64,000 nt of DNA from a virus, in the IMG/VR virus record IMGVR_UViG_3300028029_000124; one strand, given 5' to 3'. Positions 46-63,153 of this stretch are shown in pieces (within the stretch, counting starts at the first letter, position 1; every line of letters starts with the position of its first letter). The position numbers and the translations under genes are program-made. The notes beneath the pieces were generated by a model. The model saw only the letters and a list, made by a program, of their open reading frames with translations. It made no database searches and was not told where the DNA came from.

Positions 46-180
46 GCTTACTCTTATTTAGCTAAGTATTGTTGGAAGATATCAGAAAATTTTAGTTGAA
101 AATAGCCGTCTTGGTGCCGAGAAACCGCAGGTGTACGACTAATCCTAAATTAGGGGGTAGGACTACTCACTAATTTAGGA

Positions 181-3219: not shown

Positions 3220-3360
3220 GTTTACTCTTATTTAGCTAAGTATTGTGGGAAGATATCAGAAAATTCGGGGTAAAAATAGCCGTCTTGGTGCCGAGAAACC
3301 TCATGCGTTGCGCTACGCGCTGGTGTGCGGGGAAACGGAGGACTACTCACTAATTTAGGA

Positions 3361-3957: not shown

Positions 3958-4080
3958 GTTTACTATTATTTAGTTAGGTATCACTGGCGGATATACGAAA
4001 ATGGGAGGTAAAAATAGCCGTATCGGTGCCTAGGAACCTGTGCTGTGAACTATAGGGTTAGGGACTATCGAAGAATGTGA

Positions 4081-8629: not shown

Positions 8630-8795
8630 GTTGCTGCTTTCTGAAAATAGTGGATGTCTGTGTAGCACAAATAGACAGGACATAATACCTATTTATTCCT
8701 GTCTATTGGCTAGCTATCGCCCTATTGCGCCTATTTGAAGGGCATGCTACACTCGTTATCGCGGAATACGCGACAACTAGAAAAAACACAAAAAT

Positions 8796-10695: not shown

Positions 10696-10728
10696 CTTGA
10701 CTACGCGCCGAGCAAGTCGGTCGTCTGG
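10684..10728. terminator. Hairpin between convergent genes
   Basis: CCAGACGACTGACTTG / CAAGTCGGTCGTCTGG, 16-bp stem with one G-T pair, 13-nt loop. Confidence 0.6.
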
Positions 10729-10743
10729 AAATTGCGTGTAGTA

Positions 10744-11046
10744 CTACTTACCGGCAGGGGTTGCGTCTGAGGTATCCGAGCCCTTGGGGGCTGCGTCTGG
10801 GGTATCCGAGCCCTTGGGGGCTGCGTCTGGGGCATCCGAGCCCTTGGGGGCTGCGTCTGAGGCATCCGAGCCCTTGTGGGCTGCGTCTGAGGCATCCGAG
10901 CCCTTGGGGGCTGCGTCTGAGGAATCCGAGCCCTTGGGGGCTGCGTGTGTTAGGCCTTGATTGTTACCGACCGTTGCCTTTTCTTCGTGTGTGCAACATG
11001 CAGGAATAATAGTTGCAAAAACAAAACAGGTGATTTTTGAGAACAT
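10744..11046 (-). CDS. Secreted/lipoprotein-like protein with 10-aa repeat (DAAPKGSDxS)
   Basis: MFSKITCFVFATIIPACC hydrophobic leader then six decapeptide repeats. Confidence 0.6.
   Translation of the reverse strand: MFSKITCFVFATIIPACCTHEEKATVGNNQGLTHAAPKGSDSSDAAPKGSDASDAAHKGSDASDAAPKGSDAPDAAPKGSDTPDAAPKGSDTSDATPAGK
10761..10946. repeat. 30-bp tandem repeat, 6 full units plus a partial
   Basis: Unit CTGCGTCTGAGGCATCCGAGCCCTTGGGGG with few substitutions. Confidence 0.95.
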
Positions 11047-11078: not shown

Positions 11079-11549
11079 TCACCCATTACCGATAGGTCCA
11101 AACATTCTAGGCCCCATGTTTTCTGGGTGAGTTAATTGGTCCACGGCGTGAGCTATGGCGTCTGCCCAGGGCCGAGTATCTTCACGCAGATATGGGAAAG
11201 TTTGCATAGCTACGCCTTCCGTAGGGGAGAAATCTACGACGACGATATTTGCCTGTGTATTGGAGCACATCCCCGTAACGTAGTCTGGAGATGCTGCCAT
11301 GTTCCTCACCACAAATTCTGCGCTGTCGCTGTATGCGGAACAAAAATTATTGAACACTCGTAGCATGCCTTGGTCCACATCACATATTTCCAGTGCTACT
11401 ATCGACTTGTTTTGTCTGCGTGCACGAAAAACTAGGTCTTCTCCGGAAGGCAATTTATTGTTGAAACAGAACCTACGGCTTGTTTTTTTGTTCTGTTTGG
11501 TGACCAAGATTGCTAGAAGGGCAGCAGCAGGGATGATTATGGGCAACAT
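11079..11549 (-). CDS. N-terminally membrane-anchored protein
   Basis: MLPIIIPAAALLAILV followed by basic TKQNKK. Confidence 0.7.
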   Translation of the reverse strand: MLPIIIPAAALLAILVTKQNKKTSRRFCFNNKLPSGEDLVFRARRQNKSIVALEICDVDQGMLRVFNNFCSAYSDSAEFVVRNMAASPDYVTGMCSNTQANIVVVDFSPTEGVAMQTFPYLREDTRPWADAIAHAVDQLTHPENMGPRMFGPIGNG

Positions 11550-11643
11550 GCCAGCATACTACCTCGAAATCTGTGGGGGGTCACATATTTCGAGGTAGTA
11601 TGCTGGCATGTTACTGTGATGGCTACTTATTGCCTCAGAGTAA

Positions 11644-11997: not shown

Positions 11998-12348
11998 TTA
12001 GAACTCGTGTGAGGAGATAAACAAGTCTGCTAGGGCGTCTAGTTCTGACCTAGACAGCCTGTTGCCTGACTTGCGGCTAGCTTTTATTCTAGCGTAAGTG
12101 GCACGTAGTGTCGTAGCTTTAGCTGCTTCGGTAGCGATGCTTTCTGCTGCCGTCAACCTGTCCTTCTCTGCTGCCGCATTGAAAGTTAGTCGCGAACCAC
12201 ACACGATTTTTCCGTTGTGTTCCCACCCAAAAAACTCCCCGTCCGCACCTTTTAGTACTACGGGGCGCTTATCCGAGTGAGCCTTGGAATGTACCGGAAA
12301 TATCCCATCCTTACTCTCGTCCCAGTCTCTTATCTTTCTGTATGACAT
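11998..12348 (-). CDS. Hypothetical protein
   Basis: Start overlaps the stop of the LamG gene. Confidence 0.6.
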   Translation of the reverse strand: MSYRKIRDWDESKDGIFPVHSKAHSDKRPVVLKGADGEFFGWEHNGKIVCGSRLTFNAAAEKDRLTAAESIATEAAKATTLRATYARIKASRKSGNRLSRSELDALADLFISSHEF

Positions 12349-15121: not shown

Positions 15122-18100
15122 TTAGAATGTCTTGACCACCAGTTTAACTACGTCTGTAGCAAACAAAGGGTAACCAAATTGTATGGAGTCTCCGGCAATT
15201 CCTGAGTTACCTGCAGCACATGTGAAGGATCCCGCTGTGCTCGATGTCACGTTGCTGTTTATCTCCTCTAGGCCATTCACCGACACGACAACGCGAGTGA
15301 CGAAACCGGATCCTGTAGGCACAGAAGTAGGGATGGTCCCTCCCCCCAAATCCACCAGTGATGTGAGCAAAATGTCTGTGTTGGCGGAAACCGCCCCTGG
15401 GACAAACTGACCTACAGTTTCGGAGTACGAGGATCCTCCTGCACCCACCTCAGTCCAGGTTGTGCCTTCCGAAACTACATCCGACGTATTTATCCACAGC
15501 GCCCCCGGAATGCCGTCTACTGCTTGTGTGTTGCGGAAATACAGTGAAGACGGCATCGCAGCAATTGACGCGGCGCCTGGGTCACGAGTACCTACCAACA
15601 TTTGTGCGGAAGATCCGTTTGTTCCACCCGTAGATAGCTCCACGATGTGCTCGTTGTCCAGGCTAGTGTCAGCATCCACAAATAAGTATCCGGGGATTCC
15701 TGCTGTCTCTAGGCCTGGCTGGACAACTACATTTCCTCCTCTGAGTCCCGTAATCCCTGCTGGTCCCCCCTTAATTATGGTGTCCGTGCCGGAAACTGAT
15801 CCTACTGAGGCGCCCGCACTGATCACTAATGGTCCAGCGGATGCGTTAGTTCCCGCCAATCCTGCTCCCGACGTAATAGTTACGTCACCTCCGCCTTGAT
15901 CGTCACATATTCCACCGGTGATGACGACCTTTCCTCCTAAAAAGCCGCCTGTTCCTACGTTGTGGGCATTTCCGCCAGTGATCGTTACGCTACCAGGAAG
16001 GCCGTCAGACTCTCCCATCGCCGCGTTTCCTGCCTTGATTGTGACGTTTCCGCCATTGCCGGGATCTCCGACGCCAGTATCTCCACATATCAGGCTGATG
16101 CTACCTGTTGCGGATTCGAGGTCTATGCCGTCTGCTGTGAGTATGGCGATGTCTCCGTAATTGCCTGCGGTCTGGATGGTTAGATTACTAAGATCTCCGA
16201 GCGTCTGAACAATTACATGTTCTTCGCTTTCTATAGTCTGTAGGGTTAGGTCTCCCGCAGACGCCTGAACTGTCCCTGACGTTCCTTCGAAATCTATAGT
16301 GTTCGCTACCCCGCCACCTGCGTGGAGTCCTACCTGGATGCGTGTGGATGCGCTCTCTGTGTCGAACGCCGCTCCGTCAAAGAATAAGTTTCGTGCTGTA
16401 CGTACCTCTAGCCCGCCGGCAGAGTCTCCCACGTCACCTATCGTTATCAAGTCACCTATTGCCCTAGGATTGAGCGACAGTAGGTTGTTTGTTCCTGCAT
16501 CATTGCTGAACGATAGCGTGTCAGCGTCGGTGATGCGCCAATCGAAAGATTGGTCCATGTTTGCATCGGTAGCGCCTGTGTCCTCTACTGCAACCTCTAG
16601 CGTTCCTCCCCCACCCGACCCCGTGCCTACCTGCACCCAGTCTGTGTTGTTGGGCACCGCACCATTATGTATGTACATGGTAGATAGCGTCCCGGATGCT
16701 CGGTATGCTATATCTCCTGGGTTGCCCGTAATGTTTCCTATGGGGCTGGCGGCAGTCACATACTGCCTAACGTCATCGGTCGTACCTGTGTTGAGCAAGC
16801 GCAACACAATATCCCCTGCAGTAGATGCGGGAGCAGAACGTACAGTGACTGCGCCCAGTATGCCGCTGGAAGACGTCCCTGGAGACAGGGTAATGTCTCC
16901 GCCTGCCCCCACTCCTGGGGCGGCTCCCGCGATGATGGACACGTCGCCCCCTCCACTAGTGCCTCCGCCGTTTCCTGCGGCCAGTGTGATGGCGCCCCCC
17001 ACATTATTTCCTGAGCTGGCGCCTGCCGCTACGGTAACCGCCCCACCGAGCCCAGATACAGTGACATCTCCGGCAGCTATGCTTATGTCTCCAGAGCTGC
17101 CCGTGTTCACGTCCCCTGTGCCCAGCGTCAACGGCCCAGAATTACCTGAAATACTTCCTGCTCCACGAGTACCTACTAAGATACTACCAGAGTCCCCTGT
17201 AGTGGACCCTGGTACGCCGGAGAGAAGTCGTATGTCTCCAGACGTCCCTGTTCCGGACGCAGAACCTGGTCCGGAGACAATGTCAATATTCCCGCCAATA
17301 GATCCCGCCGTAGATCCCCCGGCTCCGCCATTCAGGACTAGTGTGCCGCCAGCACCTGTCCCGGAGCCGCCGCCCGCTATAACGGAAATTTCTCCTCCTG
17401 CGTTGTTGCCTCCCGTGGCGGACCCGGAAGTGACGTTTACTGAGTTTCCTGCTGCTGCGGGCTCGTCTCCTGCGGTGATGTTTACAGCGTCCGCGGCAAG
17501 TAGGTCTAAGTTTCCAGACGTTTCCGTAGAGACAGTGAACGTACCAGTGGTTACTGTGATGTTTGATGCGCCAGTACCATCGATGGAGAAAGTCCCTCCA
17601 GACAGAAGGTCGAATGTGCCCGCGACATCCACATCCATATTCGTTCCGGCATTTACGTCCAACACAGTGCCAGATGTTATATCTACGTCTTGTCCGGCAG
17701 ATAGCGAAGCGTTGCCTGCGGAGGCCCCCACTGATATGTTGCCCGCAGATACTGTGAAATTAGACGTGGCGCCGGCGTCTAGGGACACCGCCCCTGCCAT
17801 GAGTACGTCGAAGGTAGTCCCGTCGAAATCCTGTATCGGAGCATCTACGTCGAATATCAAGGCGGCTCCCGCCACCTGCACACTCGTCGCCTCCGTGACA
17901 ACAAACATATTCGCACTCAAACTGTCCCGCAACCTCCAGGCGCGAGTAGCTGCCAGATTCACGGTAGCGTTGGTAGCTACTGTTACTGTGCTTGTGCCTT
18001 GGTTGTCGTACGCGTTTTGGCGTGTAACGTCTACCGCCGCTGCCTGGTCGACCAGGCCACCTGGCCAGGGAGCGAAACACTCTTCTGGGACGGACTCCAG

Positions 18101-19544: not shown

Positions 19545-21806
19545 CTAGTACACTTCCGTGTTTATGAATGAAGCAGTAACCAGTCCGCCCGCTGCGGAAT
19601 CGTCACACTGCGCGAATGTTCCTGTGCCTGGAAAAGTAGCAGATGCTGAGGACCCTGCGGTTCCTGACGTGCCTAAGTAATCTCCCGCGGTTGCAGCATT
19701 CGTTACTTTCACTGTGAATCTACCTGCTATAACCAACCATACCTCAGCATTGTTTGCTCCGCCTATGGCTACAGGGTAAACAACGTCAGTGTTGTCGGCT
19801 GTAGTGGTAGTGGTTACAGAATTAGCGTTAAATATATCCATGACTGCTAAGTCGTTCACCGCTAATGGTCCACCGGACCTGTTCGTTTTAGCTATACAAA
19901 TAGCTTCTCCGATGAATCTAATAGATGCCGCTTTTACTACTTTTCCTGTAGATCCACTAAATAGTGCTACTTCATTATCTACAGAGCTTGCTGGGCCAGT
20001 AACGTCTCCACCAGATATCTCCGTCCAATCGGTTCCCTCTCCCGCTACGTCTGACGTGTTTATCCACACTGCCCCGGCTGTACCGTCCGCGACTTGTGTG
20101 TTCCTCAAGTATAGCGATGCAGGTCTAGCAGATATTGCTGTTGCATCTGGGTCACTTGTGCCTACAAGCATCTGTGCTGCGGATCCATTGCTTCCCCCCG
20201 TAGATAGTTCCACGATGTGTTCATCGTCACCGTTACTAGAACCTGCTAACGAGACGAACCCAGGCACTCCAGCAGTCTCTAGTCCTGGTCGCAACACTAC
20301 GTTGCCGCCAGTAGCACCAGTAGCTCCTGCTGAACCTGCGGATATGACAACATCTTCTCCGGACGAGGACCCGTTTGCGTCACCTACGGTGATGGAAATT
20401 TCTCCTCCTGCGTTGTTTCCTCCCGTGGCGGACCCGGAAGTGATGTTTACTGAGTTGCCTGCTGCTGCGGGCTCGTCTCCTGCGGTGATGTTTACAGCGT
20501 CCGCGGCAAGTAGGTCTAAGTTTCCAGACGTTTCCGTAGAGACAGTGAACGTACCAGTGGTTACTGTGATGTTTGATGCGCCAGTACCATCGATGGAGAA
20601 AGTCCCTCCAGACAGAAGGTCGAATGTGCCCGCGACATCCACATCCATATTCGTTCCGGCATTTACGTCCAACACAGTGCCAGATGTTATATCTACGTCT
20701 TGTCCGGCAGATAGCGAAGCGTTGCCTGCGGAGGCCCCCACTGATATGTTGCCCGCAGATACTGTGAAATTAGACGTGGCGCCGGCGTCTAGGGACACCG
20801 CCCCTGCCATGAGTACGTCGAAGGTAGTCCCGTCGAAATCCTGTATCGGAGCATCTACGTCGAATATCAAGGCGGCTCCCGCCACCTGCACACTCGTCGC
20901 CTCCGTGACAACAAACATATTCGCACTCAAACTGTCCCGCAACCTCCAGGCGCGAGTAGCTGCCAGATTCACGGTAGCGTTGGTAGCTACTGTTACTGTG
21001 CTTGTGCCTTGGTTGTCGTACGCGTTTTGGCGTGTAACGTCTACCGCCGCTGCCTGGTCGACCAGGCCACCTGGCCAGGGAGCGAAACACTCTTCTGGGA
21101 CGGACTCCAGTGTACTCCTAGCGACATACCCGTACTCGATGGTGAGCCCTGCTGCTGCTGTGGTCAGATCGAAGCCGTTACGTCCAGCGTTGACTACGAC
21201 AAGCGAAATCTGAACTCCGTCTGCCCCGTTGTCGAAAGCGTTACCGTTTGTGGCCGTGCTGGGGCCCTGGAGTAGACCGTATACTTGGTCGCCTCCAGGA
21301 GTAGAGACCACGTCCCCTGTGGCAGTATCTACTAGTACACAAAGATTCTTAGGTGCCAGTGCGTTCTGTCCAGGCACGACCACTGAAGAATTACCTGTAC
21401 CTACTGCTCCAGCGAGTTGGGCAGTGATGGCACCAGAAGTCGTCACAGCTCCAATGGCAGATACTTCTGTAGGTACCTGTCCAGGAGAAGCCAGAGTAAC
21501 TACGTTTGCTCCTCCCCCAACTACAATATCGGCAAGGGTAGATACCCGGCAGAGTATTGTTTTCCCTTCGAGGTCAGATAAGTCAGAATCTAATTCAATG
21601 ACGCCTCGCGCGGTTACTGCGTCGTACCAGTGCTCTCCTCCTGTGGGAACAATTCCGTGAATTAGTTTGTTTACTTGTGATCTAATCGCGTTGTAATCGA
21701 ACTCCCCGCTAGATGCTGCGGTCTGTAGTGCAGCGAGCCCGGTGCCTAATGTGTCCGTGTACGTGTCAGAAGGGAGTAGCTGAGTAGATTGTCGTGTTGC
21801 CACCAT
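19545..21806 (-). CDS. Gly-rich fibre/spike-like protein (753 aa), paralog of 15122..18796
   Basis: Shared N-terminus, shorter repeat region, different C-terminal module. Confidence 0.75.
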   Translation of the reverse strand: MVATRQSTQLLPSDTYTDTLGTGLAALQTAASSGEFDYNAIRSQVNKLIHGIVPTGGEHWYDAVTARGVIELDSDLSDLEGKTILCRVSTLADIVVGGGANVVTLASPGQVPTEVSAIGAVTTSGAITAQLAGAVGTGNSSVVVPGQNALAPKNLCVLVDTATGDVVSTPGGDQVYGLLQGPSTATNGNAFDNGADGVQISLVVVNAGRNGFDLTTAAAGLTIEYGYVARSTLESVPEECFAPWPGGLVDQAAAVDVTRQNAYDNQGTSTVTVATNATVNLAATRAWRLRDSLSANMFVVTEATSVQVAGAALIFDVDAPIQDFDGTTFDVLMAGAVSLDAGATSNFTVSAGNISVGASAGNASLSAGQDVDITSGTVLDVNAGTNMDVDVAGTFDLLSGGTFSIDGTGASNITVTTGTFTVSTETSGNLDLLAADAVNITAGDEPAAAGNSVNITSGSATGGNNAGGEISITVGDANGSSSGEDVVISAGSAGATGATGGNVVLRPGLETAGVPGFVSLAGSSNGDDEHIVELSTGGSNGSAAQMLVGTSDPDATAISARPASLYLRNTQVADGTAGAVWINTSDVAGEGTDWTEISGGDVTGPASSVDNEVALFSGSTGKVVKAASIRFIGEAICIAKTNRSGGPLAVNDLAVMDIFNANSVTTTTTADNTDVVYPVAIGGANNAEVWLVIAGRFTVKVTNAATAGDYLGTSGTAGSSASATFPGTGTFAQCDDSAAGGLVTASFINTEVY
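20394..21806. repeat. ~1.4-kb near-identical direct repeat, copy 2
   Basis: Matches 17384-18796. Confidence 0.95.
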
Positions 21807-31651: not shown

Positions 31652-31954
31652 CTATCGCGTTGACCTATATGCGCGATAGGCTTTCTTGGTAAGCGACGAA
31701 ACTATAAAAGTTTTGTCTAAAGTCTTAACATATCTGTCTCTGTGCTCTGTCCAGGTATCTGGGTTTGTTGTAAATAAGACATCTCTGGCACTGCGTAGTA
31801 TGTCGTTTACGTGGCCTACAGGTTCGGATAGGTGAGAAAAAGTGTTGGGCAACGCCTTTTTTGCTATGTCCCTAGTTGTAAGTAATATGCGCAGCACAGT
31901 AGAGATAATACCACAAAAAATGTTTTGTGGTATTATCTCTACTGTGCTGCGCAT
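31652..31954 (-). CDS. Hypothetical protein whose 5' part is a perfect palindrome
   Basis: 100-aa ORF in the expected orientation; first ~25 codons lie within the 31878-31963 palindrome. Confidence 0.35.
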   Translation of the reverse strand: MRSTVEIIPQNIFCGIISTVLRILLTTRDIAKKALPNTFSHLSEPVGHVNDILRSARDVLFTTNPDTWTEHRDRYVKTLDKTFIVSSLTKKAYRAYRSTR

Positions 31955-31963
31955 ATTACTTAC
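31878..31963. repeat. Perfect inverted repeat, 41-bp arms, 4-nt centre
   Basis: GTAAGTAATATGCGCAGCACAGTAGAGATAATACCACAAAA-AATG-TTTTGTGGTATTATCTCTACTGTGCTGCGCATATTACTTAC. Confidence 0.97.
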
Positions 31964-42809: not shown

Positions 42810-42851
42810 AAAGTCACCCCCGCAATCTTAGTTGATTGTGGGGGTGACTTT
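42810..42851 (+). terminator. Strong hairpin after tRNA
   Basis: AAAGTCACCCCCGCAATC / GATTGTGGGGGTGACTTT, 18-bp stem with one G-T pair. Confidence 0.75.
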
Positions 42852-42971
42852 CTAACATGCAACACAGATATGTGCGCTAGCTCGTGTTCGTGCGTACGTG
42901 CGTGCTCTGGGTCGTGTGTGTGATTGTATGCGCTCGCTAGTGTGCTTGTATGCGCTCGTGTTCGTGTATGA

Positions 42972-43213
42972 GCTCGCCCGTGTGCGTTCTAGGGTGCGTG
43001 TATGCGCTCGCTCGCTCGTGTGCGTGAGATAGTGCGTGTATGGGCTCGCTCGTGTGCGTTCGAGAGTGCGTGTATGTGCTCTCTCGTGTGCGTGAGATAG
43101 TGCGTGTATGTGCTCGCTCGTGTGCGTTCGAGAGTGCGTGTATGCGCTCGCTCGTGTGCGTGCGAGAGTGCTTGTACGCGCTCGCTCGTGTGCGTGCGAG
43201 AGTGCGTGTACGC
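42972..43213. repeat. 34-bp tandem repeat, seven units
   Basis: Units start at 42972, 43010, 43044, 43078, 43112, 43146, 43180; consensus GCTCGCTCGTGTGCGT(GA/TC/GC)GA(T/G)AGTGCGTGTATGY. Confidence 0.9.
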
Positions 43214-43881
43214 GCTCGTGTACCCTGTCTGGCTCTAACGTGTCGCCGTGGGCGGTATTGTGTAGATTGTCGTGCTTGCGCGTACGGCGAAACGGCTTGT
43301 GTACATAGCTGTAGTCTTGCGCACACCGCACCAAACAAAAAACACAATTCATTATGTATTTTTGGTTACTTGCACATAGGTGCTAGATGGTAGTTAGGTG
43401 ATAATGCCGCGCAATATGTGCCTCAATATTTATATAATAAAAATATTCGTCACAGTTTTTGTGTCGTGAGGTACATTTATGCCTCGATCGATCAGGTAAC
43501 ATTACTACCACAATATTTATATTACCGATATATTGCCGGATATCGGTGCAAGTTCCGCTCAATATCCTGCAATATAAGGCAATATAAATATTATTTAGGT
43601 AAGATCTCACGGAAAATTGTCGGAATAATATTTTATTAGGCTAATTAATATTTTATTAGTTACCCTGCAAGGCTGACATGTTCTCCAACGAAACCATATA
43701 TTTAGTAACGTACAACACAAAACAATATTTTATTATGTGGCTTCTACCCGAATTATATGTGTAATGTGTACCAGAATGTAACAAAACTACACTCGGTGCG
43801 CCAACCCCGTGATAGTGCGTATTCTTGTAGTTACCACCCCGTGCGGCACACATACAGAACAAAAATTAGTTGCGCAGTTTA

Positions 43882-43999: not shown

Positions 44000-44296
44000 C
44001 ACACACCGCTTTTTGCGTTCGGTTTTTCTTACGTCGATCCCTCAGCTTCAGTGATCGCTTGAGGTACTCTCAACACCAGCACACATCTTACCCCGTATGG
44101 CGCTCACATGGGCCGTGGTGAGGTTTCGCCCACCGGGGCCCGGGCATAGCAGCAAAAAACGCTAGGACGTTACTGGGGGCAACACATGGCGCACAGACAC
44201 GAACACATAAAATTAGTTTTTGTTGCTGTACGGGAAGCATCCCGGATTGACTGCGAACGCAAACCAAGGTAGTACTGTGCCGGACAGCCGATACAT

Positions 44297-44767
44297 ATGC
44301 GACAAGCCACAGCTGCAGCCACATCTGCAGCCACATCTGCAGCCACATCTGCAGCCACATCTGCAGCCTCATCTTCAGCCGCATCTGCAGCCACATCTGC
44401 AGCCACATCTGCAGCCACATCTGCAGCCACATCTGCAGCCACATCTGCAGCCACATCTGCAGCCACATCTGCAGCCACATCTGCAGCCACATCTGCAGCC
44501 ACATCTGCAGCCACATCTGCAGAGACGTATTCGGAAACTTACACTTTGTGCGTGATACCGGATCATGTTGGGGATGAACCATTCGTGTATGGGTACTCTA
44601 TACTGAAGACAAACGTTGGGTGGGATATATTGTTTAGGGAGGGTTACGGCAGTGCCCCTAACTACTCTGACTGCTGCAGTATCACTCACTTACTAGGCTC
44701 CACTTACCGAAGAGCAAACGATTTGGCGTGGGAGCAAGTAAAACAAAAATTTCCTGTCAGTGCTTGA
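44297..44767 (+). CDS. Hypothetical protein with (AATS)n N-terminus
   Basis: ATG start, repeat tract, then a plausible ~80-aa unique domain; other frames are also open across the repeat. Confidence 0.45.
   Translation: MRQATAAATSAATSAATSAATSAASSSAASAATSAATSAATSAATSAATSAATSAATSAATSAATSAATSAATSAETYSETYTLCVIPDHVGDEPFVYGYSILKTNVGWDILFREGYGSAPNYSDCCSITHLLGSTYRRANDLAWEQVKQKFPVSA
44315..44518. repeat. 12-bp tandem repeat x17
   Basis: GCAGCCACATCT, two variant units near 44351-44374. Confidence 0.97.
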
Positions 44768-46970: not shown

Positions 46971-47612
46971 CTACACATGCACATAGCTACGTTTGGCACC
47001 TATGTAACCATCCAGCCAAGAAGTGGGCTCCACATGAAATTCGTCGTCTTCCTCTATGTCCATACACGCTAACTCTTCTGCCACACGCCTTGACGCACAC
47101 ATAGACATCTCAGATACGGTCAAAGCAGCAGAGCTTGTTTTCTTATTGCGTGCGTCCCTCTCCCCGTTTAGACGCTCTGCTACTGTGGCCACTGCTCCCA
47201 ACAAAAATGATGTTTCGCAACCCCCACAATCAATGGGCAAAGACAGCAATACAGACCTAGCAGCACGTGCAAGACATAACGCATGGTTAGCAGCCTGCTC
47301 CTGACCCACAATGGAAATTTCTCCGCAGTCGGATATCAACACCTGACAAGAGTTATGTTCGGCAAATAAATCGAACAACTCCACCTCCCAAATGTTCCTG
47401 GCAGTATCTGTGTCTTCCTGAAGACGCACGCCCGAACCGCCGGAAATATTGTTAGTTTGGATGTTGTATTTGCTGGCAAGAGCTTGCGCGCGAGCTGCTG
47501 CGTTTGCTGCCTCGTACACATTGCTGGACGTGGCAAGGAGCATCAATTTTGAGATCCTATCCTCTTGCCTACGTAGAAAACTAACACTTGTGTGTTTTGT
47601 TGTACTGTACAC
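46971..47612 (-). CDS. DUF2786-like protein
   Basis: RISKLMLLATSSNVYEAANAAARAQALASKYNI matches the DUF2786 N-terminal pattern; start uncertain. Confidence 0.65.
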   Translation of the reverse strand: MYSTTKHTSVSFLRRQEDRISKLMLLATSSNVYEAANAAARAQALASKYNIQTNNISGGSGVRLQEDTDTARNIWEVELFDLFAEHNSCQVLISDCGEISIVGQEQAANHALCLARAARSVLLSLPIDCGGCETSFLLGAVATVAERLNGERDARNKKTSSAALTVSEMSMCASRRVAEELACMDIEEDDEFHVEPTSWLDGYIGAKRSYVHV

Positions 47613-47617
47613 ACCCC

Positions 47618-47645
47618 GAAACCCCGTGCGGTTAGCTACGGGGTC
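47618..47645 (-). terminator. Cassette-junction hairpin, copy 1
   Basis: GAAACCCCGT-GCGGTTAGCT-ACGGGGTC; recurs at 48289, 49175, 50149, 50851, 51602 (truncated), 52340. Confidence 0.65.
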
Positions 47646-47666
47646 AGTGTCTATAGGGTAACAGTG

Positions 47667-48209
47667 CTACTGGTTAATTATCTCTATCCCTAGTACGCAT
47701 GTTGAACCGCACACCTCTGCTGAGCCGGACACATACGCATCTCCGTGCACCTGGGCATCTCCGTGCACCTGGGCATCTCCGGATACATGTGCGCGTCCGA
47801 ACACCTGCGCCGAGCCGAACACCTTAGCGTAGTCGCACACCTCCGCCGCGCCAGCTAACCACGCATGTCCGCACACCTTAGCCGAGCCGGACACCTCCGC
47901 CGAGCCATACACCCAGGCCGAGTCGTATACTAGCACATCCCCAAACACCTTAGCCGAGCCGAACACCTCCGCCGAGCCGAACACCTGTGCAGAACCGGAC
48001 ACCTTCGCCGATCCGGACACCTCCGCCGTGTCGAATACTTGCGCCGAGTCACATACCTCCGCCTCGTCTCGCACCCGAGCACCTCGCCCAACAAAAGCAG
48101 TAGGTGCTACGGACGCTGTATCTTCTACGAGCCCACCTCCGTTTTTGTGGTGGTGCCAACCAGGAGGGGCAGAGGAGAGACCAATTAGATTTGTTTTTAC
48201 TTGTTCCAT
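47667..48209 (-). CDS. Hexapeptide-repeat (LbH) protein
   Basis: GWHHHKNGGGLVEDT leader plus hexads. Confidence 0.85.
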   Translation of the reverse strand: MEQVKTNLIGLSSAPPGWHHHKNGGGLVEDTASVAPTAFVGRGARVRDEAEVCDSAQVFDTAEVSGSAKVSGSAQVFGSAEVFGSAKVFGDVLVYDSAWVYGSAEVSGSAKVCGHAWLAGAAEVCDYAKVFGSAQVFGRAHVSGDAQVHGDAQVHGDAYVSGSAEVCGSTCVLGIEIINQ

Positions 48210-48337
48210 TTTTTGTTCCTATTTCTTAGACTGATATTGCGGTAGACTATTCAAAATAAACGAGATAAAATAATCGTCCTGGCACCTCGAAACCCCGTGC
48301 GGTTAGCTACGGGGTCAGGGCCCATTGAGGCGGCTGA
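48210..48337 (-). promoter_or_regulatory. Repeated ~120-bp cassette junction (hairpin, T-rich tract, promoter-like segment, RBS)
   Basis: Homologous to 49109-49223, 50073-50192, 50772-50893, 51524-51619, 52262-52389 and partly 52948-53019. Coding strand: hairpin, TTATTTT tract, TTGAAT, GAGTCTAA, AGG(G)AC-A5-ATG. Confidence 0.75.
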
Positions 48338-49108
48338 CTACTCACCAATTTCGGCGTCACCGCACACACACTCTCGGCCACACACCCTCGCCCGGCCGTA
48401 CACCCACACATCTCCGGACACCTGCGCCGAGTCGTACACCCGCGCCGAGTCGTACACCCGCGCATCGCCGAACACCCGCGCATCGCCGAACACCCGCGCC
48501 GCGCCGTATACCTGCGCCGCGCCGTATACCTGCGCCGCGCCGTATGCCTGCGCCGAGCCGTATACCTGCACATCGCCGGACACCTTCGCGCGGTCAAGTA
48601 CCCACGCCTTGCCGTATACATGTGCCGAGCCGTACACATGTGCCGAGCCGTACACCTCCGCCGAGCCGTACACCTCCGCCGAGCCGTACACCTTAGCGTA
48701 GTCGTGAACATCCGCCGATCCGAACACCTTCGCTTTTCCGCATATCGCCGCCTCTCTGTACACCATCGCCTCGCCAAACACCTTCGCCGATCCGCACACC
48801 TCTGCACACTCAAACACTCGCGCCGACCCATACACCGAAGCATTGCCGGATACTTCCGCCGAGCCGGATACTTCCGCCGAGCCAAACACTCGCGCCGTGC
48901 CGGACACCTCAGCGCGCCCGCGCACCTTAGCGCAGTTGTACACCTCCGCCGAGCCCAGCACCCGAGCACCCGGGCCAACAAACGCAGTGGTTGCGACGGT
49001 TGCCGTATCTTCTACGAGCCCGCCTCCGTTTGGGTGGCGGTGCCAACCTACGGGAGCGACGGAGAGTTTTACTATATATGTTTTTTCTTGTCCCATGTCC
49101 GTAACCAT
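48338..49108 (-). CDS. Hexapeptide-repeat (LbH) protein
   Basis: Shared leader, hexads, ends GDAEIGE*. Confidence 0.85.
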   Translation of the reverse strand: MVTDMGQEKTYIVKLSVAPVGWHRHPNGGGLVEDTATVATTAFVGPGARVLGSAEVYNCAKVRGRAEVSGTARVFGSAEVSGSAEVSGNASVYGSARVFECAEVCGSAKVFGEAMVYREAAICGKAKVFGSADVHDYAKVYGSAEVYGSAEVYGSAHVYGSAHVYGKAWVLDRAKVSGDVQVYGSAQAYGAAQVYGAAQVYGAARVFGDARVFGDARVYDSARVYDSAQVSGDVWVYGRARVCGRECVCGDAEIGE

Positions 49109-49223
49109 TTATTAGACTGGTGTTGTGAGCTACTATTCAAAATAAAAGAAAGAAAATAATCGTCCCGGCACCTAGAAACCCCGTGCGGTGAGCTACGGGG
49201 TCATGGCCTATAGGGCAATAGTG

Positions 49224-50072
49224 CTACTTACTAATTTCGGTGTCACCAAATATCTGCGCTTCGCCAAACACCTCAGCCGATCCGCACACATGGGCATCTC
49301 CGAACACCCAAGCTAAGCCGTGCACCAGCGCCCGCACGGACACCTTAGAATTACCAAACACTTTAGCGTTTCCGGATACCCGAGCCGAGCCGAACACCCG
49401 AGCAGAGCCGAACATTTGCGCGTAGTCCAACACTCTCGCCGAGTCGAACACCTCAGCATCTTCGCATATCCACGCATAACCGCACACATTCGCCGAGCCG
49501 GACACCTGCGCATCGCCGGACACCTTCGCGCTGCCGTACACCTGTACCTCACCACACACCAGTGCCGATTCGAACACCAGTGCCGATTCGAACACCAGTG
49601 CATGACCGTACACCTTCGCCGAGCCGTACACCTTCGCCGAGTCGTGCACCTTAGCGCAGTCGTACACCTCCGCCGATCCGAACACCTTCGCTTCTCCACA
49701 TATAACCGCATCGCTGTATACCCTAGCCCTACCAAACACCTGTACCTCACCACTCACCCGAGCCGAGCCGTACACCCGCGCCGAGCCGTACACCCGCGCC
49801 GAGCCGTACACCAGCGCCGAGTCGGACACCAGCGCCGAGCCGTACACCCACGCGTAGTCGAACACCTTCGCCGAGCCGGACACCCGCGCCGCGCCACACA
49901 CCAGCGCCGAGCCGTACACCTGCGCCCGGCCGCACACCTGTGCATCGGGTCCAACAAACGCAGTATCGTCTACGGTTGCCGTATCTTCTACGAGACCGCC
50001 GCCGTGGGGGTGGTGGTGCCAACCTGTAGGGGCGACGGATAGTTCGGTAAGATCTGTTTTTCCTTGTGCCAT
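49224..50072 (-). CDS. Hexapeptide-repeat (LbH) protein
   Basis: Shared leader, hexads, ends GDTEISK*. Confidence 0.85.
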   Translation of the reverse strand: MAQGKTDLTELSVAPTGWHHHPHGGGLVEDTATVDDTAFVGPDAQVCGRAQVYGSALVCGAARVSGSAKVFDYAWVYGSALVSDSALVYGSARVYGSARVYGSARVSGEVQVFGRARVYSDAVICGEAKVFGSAEVYDCAKVHDSAKVYGSAKVYGHALVFESALVFESALVCGEVQVYGSAKVSGDAQVSGSANVCGYAWICEDAEVFDSARVLDYAQMFGSARVFGSARVSGNAKVFGNSKVSVRALVHGLAWVFGDAHVCGSAEVFGEAQIFGDTEISK

Positions 50073-50192
50073 TTTTCGTCCTATCTATTAGACTGGTGTT
50101 GTGAGCGACTATTCAAAAAGGGAGTAAAAATAACCGTCCCGGCACCCCGAAACCTCCGTGCGGTGAGCTACGGAGTTTTGAGATGCTTATTT

Positions 50193-50771
50193 TTACCGCC
50201 TAACAATTTCTTTTCCGCGTACCTTATCTTCGCCACACACCCGCGCCGAACCACGCACCCTAGCTTCGCCGGACACTTCCGCCGATCCATACACTTCCGC
50301 CGATCCATACACTTCCGCCGATCCATGCACCTTCGCATGGCCACATATCTGCGCCTCCTCATGCGCACGCGCCGAGCCGCACACTCGAGCATCTCCGTAC
50401 ATCGACACATCTCCGTACATCGACGCATCTCCGTACGTCCGCGACGAGCCGTGTATCACCGCACCGCCGTAAACCCGAGCTTCGCCGTAAACCCGAGCTT
50501 CGCCGGACACCCACGCCTCGTCAAATACCTGCGCCGAGCCATATATCCTAGCTCCTATGGACACTATCCCCAGGCCGTACACCCGCGCCCGGCCGTACAC
50601 CTCCGCGTGATCTAGCACCCTCGCCCGGCCGTATACCCCAGCATCCGGCCCAACAAACGCAGTATCGTCTACGGTTGCCGTATCTTCTACGAGCCCACCG
50701 CCGTTTGGGTGGCGGTGCCAACCAGGAGGAGCAGAGGAAAGCCTAGTTAGATTTGTTTTTACTTGCTTCAT
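50193..50771 (-). CDS. Hexapeptide-repeat (LbH) protein
   Basis: Shared leader and hexads. Confidence 0.85.
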   Translation of the reverse strand: MKQVKTNLTRLSSAPPGWHRHPNGGGLVEDTATVDDTAFVGPDAGVYGRARVLDHAEVYGRARVYGLGIVSIGARIYGSAQVFDEAWVSGEARVYGEARVYGGAVIHGSSRTYGDASMYGDVSMYGDARVCGSARAHEEAQICGHAKVHGSAEVYGSAEVYGSAEVSGEARVRGSARVCGEDKVRGKEIVRR

Positions 50772-50893
50772 TTTTTGTCCCTATTTCTTAGACTCTGGTT
50801 GTCTAAACGTATTCAAAATAAAAGAAAGAAAATAATCGTCCTAGCACCTCGAAACCCCGTGCGGTGAGCTACGGGGTCGATCAAAGATCGGTG

Positions 50894-51523
50894 CTACCGA
50901 TCTTTGACGCACCAATTTCCGTTGACGCTAATCAAAATTCCGTGATCATCCCAAGAATATATCTCGGCAGTGTCCACCGGGGCGGGGCCGCCGAAAACGC
51001 GTAGGCCGGTCACGTCTATCCCGATATCCATTAGCGACTTGCACGCACCATCGGGACCACAGATAGAATTTTCTGCTCGATTCAACGTCTCGGCCAATTC
51101 CTCCAGGCTGTCGGAGTCGACTACGGCCTGCGCTTCCTCGGATAATTCTGAATCCATGTATGTGATTGTCGTTACGCGAGATCCGTCATATGAGCGGTTA
51201 GCCCCTGTATCCGTGACGCGCAAAATTCCACAATATGCGATATCGACGACGATGACACCCCCATGACGCGACCCCACGACGCTCTTCTGCCGCCACACGG
51301 TATCCCCGTCCACCCCCGCGGGCAGGCTAGGGTGGATGGTTATGTCATGTGACGCACATAGTTCGCCATTAAAGTGAACACCTACGGTCCACGTGTACGA
51401 CCTATCGTCCGTAGACAGATCTCCGGCGAATTGTTTGGCGGCGTCGTACGGACACGCGGCTAGCACCAGATATTTTTCTTCGCATCCAACAGTATCACAA
51501 TAGTATGTTTTTTCTTGTGTCAT
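50894..51523 (-). CDS. Non-LbH cargo protein beginning with the LbH leader MTQEKT
   Basis: Full junction elements on both sides; only the first six residues resemble the LbH genes. Confidence 0.75.
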   Translation of the reverse strand: MTQEKTYYCDTVGCEEKYLVLAACPYDAAKQFAGDLSTDDRSYTWTVGVHFNGELCASHDITIHPSLPAGVDGDTVWRQKSVVGSRHGGVIVVDIAYCGILRVTDTGANRSYDGSRVTTITYMDSELSEEAQAVVDSDSLEELAETLNRAENSICGPDGACKSLMDIGIDVTGLRVFGGPAPVDTAEIYSWDDHGILISVNGNWCVKDR

Positions 51524-51619
51524 TTTTTGTCCTATCTATTAGACTCGGGTTGGCTCAACATATTCAAAATAAAAGAAATAAAACAACCGTCCTAGCACCC
51601 CGAAACCCCGTGCGGCTAG

Positions 51620-52261
51620 CTACCTACTCGGCATAATTAAAATTTCCCAATACCCCCCCGAGGTACCTATATAATCCGAGCAGCTCAACATGAAAATTAT
51701 CGGGTCCATGGCACCCACTCCCAGATACATATCCACAACACTAGGGTTCCTTCCGTCGGCTAGCTTGAGCATCCGCGCCAACAATTGAATGTTCACACGT
51801 ATGTCGCTCGCACGCTTATTTTCGGGTCTTTCTGCAGACTGCACGGCAGCAGAGTAAATTGTGCCTAGCTTGGCACCAACGACCATACCGGAGCTGTTTA
51901 CCCGCACACGCTCGGTAACAGAAAATTTTCCTGACATCTGTACACCATCCACACAAATTGTGGCTACTCCTTCACCTGAATCGTACGGTGCTTGTACGGA
52001 TATAACCGATTTACGCCCAGCCGATTTTAGTGCTATTTCTGCGCACGCTAGTGGTAGGCAGTGAAATGTGTCCGGAATTTCGCGCACGTGTTCACTCCCT
52101 CTGTCCGTACGGACGGCGCACGCATGACCGTCAGTAGCAGCTAGGTGATGTCTAGACACTAACAACGGTAACAGATAAGAATCTTCCTTATTTCCTACAA
52201 TCTTGGACGCAGACGCTATCAAGAAAGACAACTCTTTTTTTGTGATTATGTGGCTAACCAT
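51620..52261 (-). CDS. Sliding-clamp (DNA Pol III beta)-like partial protein
   Basis: LAATDGHACAV and RVNIQLLARML resemble beta-clamp domain motifs; much shorter than DnaN. Confidence 0.45.
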   Translation of the reverse strand: MVSHIITKKELSFLIASASKIVGNKEDSYLLPLLVSRHHLAATDGHACAVRTDRGSEHVREIPDTFHCLPLACAEIALKSAGRKSVISVQAPYDSGEGVATICVDGVQMSGKFSVTERVRVNSSGMVVGAKLGTIYSAAVQSAERPENKRASDIRVNIQLLARMLKLADGRNPSVVDMYLGVGAMDPIIFMLSCSDYIGTSGGYWEILIMPSR

Positions 52262-52389
52262 TTTTTGCTCTATCTATTAGACTCGGGTCGGCTAAACATA
52301 TTCAAAATAAAAGAAAGAAAATAATCGTCCCGGCACCTCGAAGCCCCGTGCGGTGAGCTACGGGGGCCAGGGCCGATAGGATAATAGTA

Positions 52390-52947
52390 CTAATTCCTAA
52401 TTTCGGTGTCGCCGGACACATCCGCCGAGTCGAGCACCCACGCCTGGCCGCGCACCTGCGCTTCGCCGCGCACCTGCGACGAGCCGGACACCCGAGCCAT
52501 TTCGAACACCTGAGCCGCGCCGAATACACTAGCCCCGTCGGACACCTCCGCAGAGCCGTACACCCGCGCGGATCCGTATATCGCCGCGCCCGACACCCGC
52601 GCCGAGCCAGACACTCTCGCCGAACCGAATATCACAGTATCCCCGCATATATGTGCTCCGTCACTAATCTGGGATTTTTCGTTTACCCACACCTCGCCGG
52701 ATACCTTCGCGCGGCCGGACACCCGCGCCGAGCCAGATATCCACGCCGAGCCAGATATCCGCGCCGAGTCCAGTATCTGCGCATCCCCGTACACTTGCGC
52801 TTCCTCGCTGACCTGTGCGTCAGGTCCAACAAACGCAGTAGGTGCTGCGGTAGCCGTGTCCTCTACGAGCCCGCCACCGTTTGGGTGGCGGCTCCATCCG
52901 GTAGGAGCGACGGATAATTTGGTCAAATCTGTTTTTTCCAGTCTCAT
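52390..52947 (-). CDS. Hexapeptide-repeat (LbH) protein
   Basis: Shared leader, hexads, ends GDTEIRN*. Confidence 0.85.
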   Translation of the reverse strand: MRLEKTDLTKLSVAPTGWSRHPNGGGLVEDTATAAPTAFVGPDAQVSEEAQVYGDAQILDSARISGSAWISGSARVSGRAKVSGEVWVNEKSQISDGAHICGDTVIFGSARVSGSARVSGAAIYGSARVYGSAEVSDGASVFGAAQVFEMARVSGSSQVRGEAQVRGQAWVLDSADVSGDTEIRN

Positions 52948-53019
52948 TTTTTGTCCCTATCTATTAGACTCGGGCCGGATAAACGCATTCAAAATAAGCG
53001 AAATAAAAGAAATTGAACT

Positions 53020-53286: not shown

Positions 53287-53671
53287 TTAGACGGATATTG
53301 TTCGTCACCTATTCAATAAAATAAAATAAAATAAAAAGAATAATCGAGGAAGAATACACGTCTAAATTGCGTGAACGTCGCAAAAAACATCTCTTCCGCA
53401 CTATCGTCGCACGTACTAATTGCCGCTTTCGCGATGTTTGCGCGAAAGCGTCAATCTCGCCTATACACGGCGGCGAGTTACCGGGACTGTCAATTACTTG
53501 ACGCGGCAGGCATCGGCGTAGGGTTTCGCGCAGGTGACGCACATTATGCTATGCTATTGACGCCGCGTGGTACGCGATTACTGCGCGCGTACCGAAATAT
53601 GGGAGAGGAAAGAAATAAAAATAATGAGGATAAAAATAGTGTTACGGAGTCTAATTAGATAGGGACAGAGG

Positions 53672-53983
53672 ATGACAAAAACTAAAAATTACTCGGCAGA
53701 AAAAACTGAGATGCATATATGGATCAGCAATACGGAGAACCTCTATGCGCATATTATCCGCATGGAGGAGGAATCACTAAAAAAAGCAGCCGCGGGTAAA
53801 TATACCCGAGCGGCTGCAATCAGATTGTGGAGGCGCGTGGTAAACGACGGGGCCACATATTGCGCTAAGTCCGGAGGGCGAACATTCCCAAAATTGTTGT
53901 GCGAGGAAATAGCTACAGAAATGGTAGAAGAATTCGAGGAAACCGGAGAATTCAGGAATCTGCGGCCAACTCGTTCAATTTGA
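53672..53983 (+). CDS. Hypothetical helical protein
   Basis: Preceded by an inverted copy of the cassette promoter/RBS segment (GAGTCTAATTAGATAGGGAC). Confidence 0.7.
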   Translation: MTKTKNYSAEKTEMHIWISNTENLYAHIIRMEEESLKKAAAGKYTRAAAIRLWRRVVNDGATYCAKSGGRTFPKLLCEEIATEMVEEFEETGEFRNLRPTRSI

Positions 53984-62172: not shown

Positions 62173-63153
62173 ATGGATACAAAAACAAAACTAATAATTC
62201 GGCAAAGATCACGTAAATTCGTGCGTTCATCTAGAGTTCGCGTGGCAAAGAGCCAACCTTTTGCCGGAGGGGTATTCCCTGGTCACGTAGGTGACTGCTC
62301 CCCTTGTCAGCAGTATGCTCAGGACACGTGCTCTCCGTGCGACGAACCGCACGTGCAAGATCCTTGTCCCGAACCCCCACCTGTGCGCACGCCCACTAAG
62401 CCTAGACAGCCCCCTACACGCACGCCCACTAAGCCTCGACAGCCTCCCGCCCCTCGACCGCGACCTCCCGCCCCTCGACCGCGACCTCCTGCTCCTCGAC
62501 CTCCTGCTCCTCGACCTCCTGCTCCTCGACCTCCTGCTCCTCGACCTCCTGCTCCTCCTGCTCCTCGACCGCGACCTCCTGCTCCACCCACTAAGCCTAA
62601 GCACCCACCTACTAAGCCTAAGCACCCACCTACTAAGCCTAAGCACCCACCTACTAAGCCTAAGCACCCCCGTCCTCCCGTACCCCCCACAGCCGGGCCA
62701 CGAGGACCGTTAGTATATAACACTGTCCCATATACACCGCCGTCGTGCCTAGATGTTTGTGAGCATAGGTACAAGGCCGGGCAGATGTCCAAAGAAGCAT
62801 ACGCAGCATGCGTGCTAGATTGCTGTGTCGCAGAATGTGTCGCAGCAGGGGGTAACGCGGACTTGTGTCGGCGTAATTGTTCCCCTAAACCTGCAGGATT
62901 ACCTAAAAACTCCGTGTCGTGTTCCCAACATTGTCGTGGGAAGCACGGGACAAACACTAAAGCTTACTTCCGCTGTATGGCCGAAATTTGTGAGGGCGGC
63001 CTGGATACGCAACGGCCCAGCGGCGCCCACGTAGAGCCGCTCGTCACGAATAGCTCACCCACACATTCTGTGGGAGGTTCGGTAGGCGGCAGTGCTGCAG
63101 CAGTGCTGCACGGAGGGTTCAAGGCAACACTAAATTCGATGGGAAAGAAGTAA
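62173..63153 (+). CDS. Pro-rich, Cys-rich low-complexity protein
   Basis: PPAPR (15-bp) and PTKPKHP (21-bp x4) repeats flanked by CxxxC-type Cys clusters. Confidence 0.65.
   Translation: MDTKTKLIIRQRSRKFVRSSRVRVAKSQPFAGGVFPGHVGDCSPCQQYAQDTCSPCDEPHVQDPCPEPPPVRTPTKPRQPPTRTPTKPRQPPAPRPRPPAPRPRPPAPRPPAPRPPAPRPPAPRPPAPPAPRPRPPAPPTKPKHPPTKPKHPPTKPKHPPTKPKHPRPPVPPTAGPRGPLVYNTVPYTPPSCLDVCEHRYKAGQMSKEAYAACVLDCCVAECVAAGGNADLCRRNCSPKPAGLPKNSVSCSQHCRGKHGTNTKAYFRCMAEICEGGLDTQRPSGAHVEPLVTNSSPTHSVGGSVGGSAAAVLHGGFKATLNSMGKK

Follow-up and report, generated by a model that had tools for sequence, protein, structure and literature searches.

A hairpin at the gene junctions of a phage genome piece and its apparent relatives in otherwise unrelated phages: a candidate family of stop-hairpin-start gene linkers

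Introduction

What does a GC-rich hairpin do that recurs behind one gene after another in a phage genome? The accessory-gene regions of phages turn over fast, and the arrival of new genes that are already wired for expression is only partly understood; the promoter-early stem-loop (PeSL) cassettes are the one well-described answer, limited to T4-type phages (Arbiol et al., 2010, PMC2839356; Comeau et al., 2014, PMC4122927). We address this question in the virus record IMGVR_UViG_3300028029_000124 of IMG/VR, from which a stretch of 64,000 nucleotides was analyzed as a whole (hereafter the window). In an array at 47.6-52.4 kb of the window, one hairpin stands after each of seven consecutive minus-strand genes. 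A preliminary description of this DNA had proposed that the structure is selected and that its loop may be bound by a protein, as in attC-like folded sites or antitermination hairpins. Judged by comparison of sequences, the hairpin is part of an undescribed family of stop-hairpin-start gene linkers found in about ten otherwise unrelated phage contigs, and its structure is selected on the mRNA strand.

A hairpin at seven consecutive gene ends

The pattern CCCGT-N10-ACGGG occurs five times in the window against 0.32 occurrences expected by chance, and its 16-mer core (up to 3 mismatches) has seven copies between 47.6 and 52.4 kb: four canonical ones, two folding variants and one without the 5′ arm. 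The repeat that the preliminary description reported is thus real, but the seventh copy (51605-51628), which has kept only the loop and one arm, was missed there; one more copy, decayed, lies in a second array at 1-7.6 kb. The minus strand carries every gene across 46.9-53.3 kb, so that the upstream gene of a junction lies at higher coordinates. On the plus strand, the canonical copies read ACCCCGT, a 10-nt loop and ACGGGGT (47621-47644, 48292-48315, 49178-49201, and 50854-50877). In the sense of the mRNA, the outer helix consists of a G·U pair, an A-U pair, CCCCG/CGGGG and a U-A pair and is followed by a bulged A, after which an inner GC/GC helix is capped by a 5-nt loop, U(C/A)ACC. This GC-rich stem of eight outer and two inner pairs has a folding energy of -15.4 kcal/mol in the canonical copies, and folding finds it to be the sole robust helix of the junction.

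The position of the hairpin relative to the upstream stop codon is as regular as had been claimed: for the TAGs at 47667, 48338, 49224, and 52390, the distance to the G in front of the stem is exactly 21 nt, and a set spacing to a TAG turns out to be a trait of the family. These TAGs belong to copy 1 (47620-47645, minus strand like all copies; 61.6 bits; -15.4 kcal/mol; TAG 47667-47669), which is the terminal copy of the array, to copy 2 (48291-48316; 66.7 bits; TAG 48338-48340), to copy 3 (49177-49202; 65.0 bits; TAG 49224-49226) and to copy 7 (52342-52368; 65.8 bits; -13.6 kcal/mol; TAG 52390-52392). The remaining spacings are 17 nt for copy 4 (50154-50175; 57.8 bits; -11.4 kcal/mol; TAA 50193-50195) and 15 nt for copy 5 (50853-50878; 62.7 bits; TAG at 50894).

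The genes of this array comprise five paralogs that code for beta-solenoid proteins (YdcK/bactofilin-like hexapeptide; 47-56% identical), for which a protein search gave distant matches only, and two unrelated cargo open reading frames (ORFs), 50894-51523 and 51620-52261, which interrupt them. Copy 5, 3′ of the first of these, has had its spacer replaced by a 12-bp fold-back of the cargo gene's own end (50881-50907). In the truncated copy (51593-51634, minus strand; 20 bits; no stable hairpin), the loop, the 3′ arm and the conserved box that follows are kept, and the 5′ arm is replaced by the end of the second cargo gene, which stops at a TAG inside the hairpin's own GUAGCU.

Evidence for selection on the fold is thin within the window itself, where only one pair differs on both sides and 21 in 500 shuffles score as high as the observed covariation. 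That paired change, in the outer helix of copy 4 (CTCCGT/ACGGAG on the plus strand), had been noted before and is real, but it can be read in two ways, as C-G to U-A or as a U·G wobble with a 1-nt insertion. Copy 7, which reads GCCCCGT/ACGGGGGC on the plus strand (52343-52367) and has a changed closing pair, retains its helix only if a C is bulged.

Relatives in other phage contigs

We scanned sequence collections with exact patterns only, so that the family size, host range and stop codon statistic given here are provisional, and features forced by a pattern (the 3′ arm and GGTGTGA in one scan; the loop or the arms in others) were not counted as evidence. The first exact-pattern scans of viral contigs, metagenomes and species genomes gave one match outside the window, contig L005 (L017 is identical with it; its sequence is also that of L016 and L018, on a 50-kb contig binned into a Nannocystaceae metagenome-assembled genome, MAG). 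L005 is lambda-like by its terminase, portal, and capsid, and a tblastx comparison with the window found no common protein; its hairpin is nevertheless alignable with the window copies from the stop (TAGCAC) to about 20 nt past the hairpin, over 42-62 nt and at 81-86% identity. The covariance model that the preliminary description had called for was built, and it revealed at least six related hairpins in L005, standing after successive small genes. Almost identical in their flanks, they vary in inner helix and loop, and one pair runs through the series C-G, C·A, U-A. The L005-series hairpins are confined to the phage contig, with none elsewhere in the MAG. A host repeat of the repetitive extragenic palindromic (REP) kind was rejected as an explanation, given that all 6 exact flank matches in the 4.8-Mb MAG of L016 are on the phage contig and that the species-genome scan gave that contig only. 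In L016, an 83-aa gene has been duplicated together with its junction hairpin (3072-3349 and 4503-4780; 100% protein identity).

Defining the core as a sequence that begins C(C/U)CCGUA and is followed by GGU(G/A), we obtained 12 distinct cores, of which the window accounts for three and L005, L024, L196, L205/L234, L207, L220, L230, and L233 for the other nine. All have the outer helix and one bulged nucleotide in common, a combination present in at least nine unrelated phage contigs, which are GC-rich. Above the bulge they carry seven different inner helices (GC, GCCG, CCGG, CCGC, CCUC, CCC, and UCCGC), every one of them complementary; the mean inner-stem length is 2.9, compared with 1.16 when the halves are shuffled among members, and none of 2000 shuffles gave a value as high. 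The same cap, GCAA, closes three different inner stems. In four contigs the outer helix reads CUCCG/CGGGG, for which a U·G pair is possible on the sense strand only. It is mainly these covarying relatives, whose evidence is far stronger than that of the window alone, that lead us to conclude that the structure is selected and that the selected strand is that of the mRNA, in agreement with the first half of the earlier proposal.

The second half of that proposal fares differently. The loop is invariant inside the window phage, as had been seen, but it is replaced in the relatives (GCAA, GCAG, AUCA, UCC, and others), with no family-wide conservation, and a protein bound to the loop, as proposed, is not supported. 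The parts that are kept across phages without common proteins are the lower-stem sequence CCCCGUA..ACGGGG and the 3′ flank YUUCGnGGUG, together with the bulge, and a factor that binds the lower helix, the bulge and the flanks is possible.

The relatives also show where the element sits with respect to genes: a stop codon, in most cases TAG, stands some 20-23 nt upstream. Among those found through the 3′ flank, the upstream ORF ends 18-25 nt before CCCCG, and its stop is TAG in about 12 of 18 distinct elements (raw tally 14 TAG, 4 TGA, and 3 TAA), compared with a rough background at the same loci of 34% TAG and 51% TGA. The TAG is uninformative as an oddity of the window, where it is the commonest stop codon (25 of 63 other ORFs), and becomes informative only in the GC-rich relatives. 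On the other side of the hairpin, the conserved GGUGUGA contains a GTG from which 60 or more codons can be read in 17 of 26 cases; the other usable frame is that long in 8 of 26. For the GC-rich contigs, starts were judged from open frames only. In one L005 copy this GTG is replaced by ATG. The GUG or AUG of the next ORF falls about 10 nt past the hairpin, without a well-spaced Shine-Dalgarno sequence. The window itself offers such a case 10 nt after copy 1, where the second GTG of the GGGGUGUG box (47610-47612, minus strand) is the start of a DUF2786 gene (46971-47612); the DUF2786 match sets in at residue 18, ahead of the first ATG in that frame.

Several observations fall outside this family as defined here. 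Three GC-rich phage contigs (L162, L202, and L217) carry two or three hairpins each with a CGGGGCU-UUU-GGGGUGU tail and without the GUA bulge, which suggests a looser, larger family. A look-alike at 12237-12265 of the window lies inside an ORF, was taken to be a chance match and was left out of the core set; L015 and most matches to loose patterns are likewise chance. A scan of viral contigs for the box pattern gave nothing, and the Rfam 15 covariance models had no match at the hairpins in the window or in L016, either at the gathering score or at E up to 10. Other structural readings were tried and rejected. A pseudoknot between CACC of the loop and GGUG of the box would have 7 bp in one L005 copy and 4 bp in most window copies, with none in three L005 copies, and a second hairpin within the box is inconsistent among copies. 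For readthrough of the TAG into a coding hairpin, an in-frame extension exists, but the differences between copies are not at third positions and the spacers differ by 7 nt. A tRNA-derived fragment or attP core would leave the T-arm unpaired, and Rfam is empty here; a solitary CRISPR-repeat mimic would have its handle on the wrong side and too long a loop.

Junction architecture

In the window, the hairpin is one block of a longer repeat. Six homologous array junctions of 96-128 nt, typically alignable over about 105-125 nt, run from the upstream stop to the downstream start in a constant order: a variable spacer, the hairpin, the box, an AT-rich run that ends in TTGAATA, a variable spacer of about 14 nt and the block AGTCTAA..ATAGGA..AAAAATG, which often extends through the first six codons (MTQEKT). 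Alignment and block identity define one complete junction at 48210-48337 (minus strand; hairpin, UUUCGAGGUGCC..GGACGAUUAUUUU box, AT-rich run, TTGAATA, AGTCTAA..ATAGGA..AAAAATG), and together with repeat families they define its equivalents at 49109-49223, 50073-50192, 50772-50893, 51524-51619, and 52262-52389 (minus strand). The box, UUUCGRGGUGCYRGGACGRUURUUUU, has six copies against 0 expected; the AT-rich run with TTGAAT-N18/19-TCTAAN is also conserved, as is the start module ATAGGA(C)AAAAAATG, which amounts to a Shine-Dalgarno sequence with the start codon at the 3′ end of the motif. Conserved blocks are about 90% or more identical (the hairpin about 96%) and the spacers are near random, while the paralogs are only 47-56% identical, which excludes recent duplication alone as the cause. 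The blocks were kept either by selection or by very patchy gene conversion.

The two halves of the junction also occur apart. Hairpin and beginning of the box stand alone 3′ of the last solenoid gene (47613), and the promoter-like half with its ribosome-binding site (RBS) stands alone at 52948-53019 (minus strand; AT-rich run, TTGAATG, AGTCTAATAGATAGGG, ATG), right after a TGA stop and without hairpin or box, and again at about 53287-53345 (minus strand), 5′ of the first array genes. It is also found in the opposite orientation before the plus-strand gene at 53672. The region 53290-53700 is a divergent control region, with the start module AGTCTAAT..ATAGGG..ATG directed leftward for the array and the same module, with a 1-nt insertion, directed rightward for the plus-strand gene 53672-53983. 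The hairpin is thus separable from the promoter-like/RBS half of the junction, and by position it is a gene-end signal, the other half being a gene-start signal. The order of the linker as a whole is stop codon, about 21 nt, hairpin, GGUG box, next gene. The preliminary description had also treated the arrays as expression cassettes and had noted fold-backs and a cargo gene fused after codon six; these points were rechecked and are consistent with this picture.

The second solenoid array (1-7.6 kb) contributes three junctions, whose box, GGTT(T/C)C..GGCACC, is related to that of the first. One holds the decayed hairpin copy (4024-4068, minus strand; 14.1 bits; -0.3 kcal/mol), 5′ of the box GGTTCCTAGGCACC. 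At each of the remaining two, a fold-back formed from the gene's own 3′ end takes the slot of the hairpin; these fold-backs measure 26-34 bp, one (26-33 bp) lying just 5′ of the GGTTTC box (128-195, minus strand) and another at 3313-3400; the presence of a hairpin in this slot therefore seems to outweigh its sequence. The fold-back at 3313 meets the remnant of the old hairpin at CGTAG, and the truncated copy of the first array (at 51609) breaks at the same CGTAG, on the border of arm and loop. Some hairpin precedes the box in 8 of the 10 junctions of both arrays together, and it is not indispensable. The box hexamer of the second array, GGCACC (99-126, 3273-3300, and 4011-4038), and that of the first, GGTGCC (48267-48294 and equivalents), are mutual reverse complements by way of a two-base change. 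A micro-ORF of 10-19 codons (M-P/L-G-R-L-F...) can be read from the GTG of GAGGTGCC (48267-48290 and the equivalent boxes), with 4 of 5 differences between copies on third codon positions; it is absent from the 1-7.6 kb array and is probably due to chance.

What the hairpin may do

We propose, with a probability of about 0.5, that the hairpin acts on the mRNA strand as a leaky terminator and as a hairpin that protects the 3′ end, within a linker placed at cistron boundaries. On emerging from RNA polymerase it would make the enzyme terminate part of the time, which fits the weak U tract, and it would then block 3′ exonucleases at whatever 3′ end forms. In the solenoid array, every gene would then form a cassette that is insulated in part and has a promoter-like block of its own 3′ of the hairpin. 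The array linker would in this case be the hairpin module extended by a promoter-like/RBS block, giving PeSL-like cassettes shuffled by recombination between junctions, for which the repeated junction of about 105 nt would supply the homology; such recombination would explain the two unrelated cargo genes that lie between intact junctions.

A number of observations weigh against this proposal. The tail of the hairpin in mRNA sense, UUUCGAGG, has about 3 U in 8, as weak a U tract as had been noted, and a terminator scan of the window called none of the array hairpins; nor does a sigma-70 scan call any minus-strand site at the promoter-like block. In most relatives, as at 47613, only some 10 nt separate the hairpin from the next gene, which leaves no room for a promoter; termination must be leaky there or the hairpin does something else, and at 47613 at least it cannot be an efficient terminator. 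Two box-bearing junctions, 4024-4068 and 51593-51634, are without a stable hairpin, which makes it dispensable at some sites. Moreover, a plain terminator leaves the conserved bulge and the sequence CCCCGUA..ACGGGG unexplained, has no need of the roughly 20 conserved nucleotides 3′ of the hairpin that unrelated phages have in common or of the preference for TAG, and does not account for the poorly spaced Shine-Dalgarno sequence before the GTG.

These same features (bulge, lower-stem sequence, 3′ flank, TAG, and Shine-Dalgarno spacing) keep a factor-dependent reading alive, in which the hairpin is a processing site or a translational operator. We regard it as a tentative alternative that a dedicated RNA-binding or RNA-cutting factor, of phage or host, recognizes the lower helix, the bulge and the flanks, with the outcome that the RNA is cut a few nucleotides downstream or that translation of the next gene is repressed or activated; after a cut, the upstream message would end in a hairpin and the next one would begin with a nearly leaderless GUG, much as at the RNase III sites between T7 early genes. 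That conservation here goes beyond pairing, in phages that lack common proteins, speaks for such a factor, as do the conserved bulge, the GUG or AUG close behind the hairpin (with its one change from GUG to AUG) and the invariance of the loop within the window. Set against this, no candidate factor was identified, the loop varies freely across the family, two junctions are without the hairpin and two have unrelated fold-backs, and in the internal array junctions the real start is about 80 nt further on. A wider form of the same idea, somewhat more doubtful, is that the whole stop-hairpin-start unit (UAG, about 22 nt, CCCCGUA-variable helix-ACGGGG, YUUCGnGGU, GUG) could be an undescribed structured RNA motif that has spread horizontally among unrelated phages, that is read by a factor for RNA cutting or for gating translation at cistron boundaries, and that doubles as a portable linker by which phages exchange and capture genes in ready-to-express form.

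It is unlikely that the linker is mainly a recombination site and that any effect on expression is secondary, be it through passive homology between cassettes or as a folded site cut by a recombinase, as in attC. The unrelated cargo genes would fit, as would a linker that reaches from one stop (with TAGCAC repeated both in the window and in L005) to the following start, the presence of one module in phages without common genes and the two independent rearrangements that break at the same CGTAG; crossovers of PeSLs have likewise been mapped inside the stem-loop (PMC2839356). However, those breakpoints are accounted for by 4-5 nt of microhomology, the covarying inner stems, the GCAA loops and the sense-only G·U pairs indicate a selected RNA fold that passive homology would not need, and there are no attC cores, integron integrase, terminal inverted repeats or target duplications. 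The only recombinase of the window (7580-8683) lies about 40 kb from the array hairpins and reaches no more than 65 bits, far below every curated cut-off (220-335, the integron-integrase/XerA model included). Taken with the missing cores and with cassettes that have promoter-like and RBS blocks of their own, this counts against the attC-like site of the preliminary description; its antitermination hairpin is disfavored by a hairpin at each gene end, not one per operon start.

An operator in duplex DNA, with a dimeric repressor binding the inverted repeat of each cassette, is very improbable; the stoperators of mycobacteriophage L5 and the conserved inverted repeats of phiC31 are the comparisons for it. 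An integrase is present, so that the phage may be temperate, and the hairpin occurs once per cassette, in one orientation and near promoter-like blocks. Compensatory changes and wholly different inner helices preserve pairing and not the sequence of half-sites, however; the G·U pairs exist only in the RNA of one strand, and the arm centers are 17 bp apart, out of helical phase. We give just as little credence to the absence of any function, with the hairpin carried along by tandem duplication of solenoid genes, an explanation that is already disfavored. The copies do sit in a tandem array of paralogs, and their spacing to the stop is as duplication would give, but the hairpin is still about 96% identical where the junction spacers have been randomized, the paralogs are only about 50% identical in protein, and the same module, with covariation, is found in unrelated phages.

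Comparison with known systems

The layout of the array junctions resembles that of PeSL cassettes, here in a different kind of phage. A PeSL consists of a stem-loop terminator or attenuator, an AT-rich region, a strong sigma-70-like early promoter, a Shine-Dalgarno sequence and a start; it is about 100 bp long and flanks ORFans (PMC2839356). Passive homology for recombination has been proposed for PeSLs and for 'boundary sequences'. The window junctions are likewise intergenic composite repeats of about 100 nt, with a G/C-rich stem-loop after the upstream stop, an AT-rich region, promoter-like hexamers, a Shine-Dalgarno sequence and a start; they too flank small accessory genes and unrelated cargo, and they have rearrangement breakpoints inside the stem-loop. 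They differ in that PeSLs reside in hyperplastic regions of T4-type myoviruses, whereas the window phage is not T4-type (its replication genes code for a polymerase of the PolA type, a primase and a helicase), that the promoter-like block is not called by the sigma-70 scan, the terminator and promoter roles being predictions here, and that the hairpin module can stand by itself 10 nt ahead of a start codon and is common to unrelated phages, neither of which has been described for PeSLs. What is new is a structured motif that phages without genes in common share, with covariation, a bulge, a preferred stop at a fixed distance and a start nearby. Should it be read by a factor, it would provide a new handle on phage gene expression and a compact, portable part for cistron boundaries; should it be only a leaky terminator, the finding would be ordinary but well documented.

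The repeats of Cluster K mycobacteriophages, the start-associated sequence (SAS) and its extended form (ESAS) (Pope et al., 2011, PMC3203893), are similar in being inverted repeats with a variable spacer just 5′ of a conserved short sequence that abuts the start codon, in many copies of one orientation in the non-structural half of the genome. The 13-bp SAS, GGGATAGGAGCCC, lies 3-8 bp before the start and the ESAS consists of 17-bp inverted-repeat arms upstream; the window sequences differ from both. For the ESAS the arm sequence is conserved, and neither covariation nor a link to an upstream stop has been described, whereas in the window family the inner helix covaries.

With an intrinsic terminator the hairpin has in common a GC-rich stem of 8+2 bp about 20 nt after a stop, with A before the stem and U's after it; it differs in having 3 U as opposed to about 5 of 8, in its conserved bulge and flanks, and in the next gene, which often starts 10 nt downstream. 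In phage T7, the RNase III sites between early genes are irregular duplexes of about 50-60 nt, and once they are cleaved the upstream message keeps a protective hairpin at its 3′ end. The window hairpin resembles them in being conserved and in standing between the cistrons of a polycistronic phage transcript, but its helix is too short for RNase III. Like attC sites of integrons, the window element is a folded site that closes every cassette of a unidirectional array on the 3′ side, with the stop at or inside the element. However, its flanks (..CGAAAC / GTTTCGA..) fit neither attC core (R″ RYYYAAC; R′ GTTRRRY), integron integrase and attI are lacking, its helix is short and symmetric with one bulge, and its junctions carry promoter-like and RBS blocks, whereas attC cassettes are promoterless and expressed from one Pc. 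Lambda-type nut sites (boxA/boxB) are single in each early operon, and their stem of 5 bp carries a GNRA-like pentaloop; the window has seven sites, one behind each gene, with a 10-bp bulged stem and the loop UCACC.

Other features of the window

The window is a phage-like genome piece that encodes, besides the solenoid arrays, a PolA-type polymerase, a helicase, a primase, a Dam methylase, a tyrosine recombinase and one tRNA. Searches of isolate phages with megablast and blastn found no close relative, and the nearest relative by DNA polymerase (50% identity) is L189, a 152-kb contig. Neither a solenoid array nor the junction hairpin was found within the 40 kb of L189 that were sampled, and the DNA-polymerase relatives of the window phage in general showed no comparable junction in the 40 kb sampled. 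L189 carries an IS605 OrfB/TnpB-like gene (15770-16993) within its replication region.

Repeats of other kinds are found elsewhere in the window. A 300-nt duplication of 99% identity (17384-17683 and 20394-20693) lies inside ORFs of 1224 and 753 aa, neither of which has a PHROG match. Tandem repeats whose units measure 12, 34, 30, and 15-21 nt are located within or beside ORFs at 44257-44568, 42904-43247, 10727-10966, and 62413-62606, respectively. Near-perfect long inverted repeats occur at gene boundaries at 31878-31963 (41-bp arms), 11545-11612 (31-bp arms), and 42810-42851 (18-bp arms); those with 41-bp and 18-bp arms separate convergent gene ends, a placement expected of bidirectional terminators.

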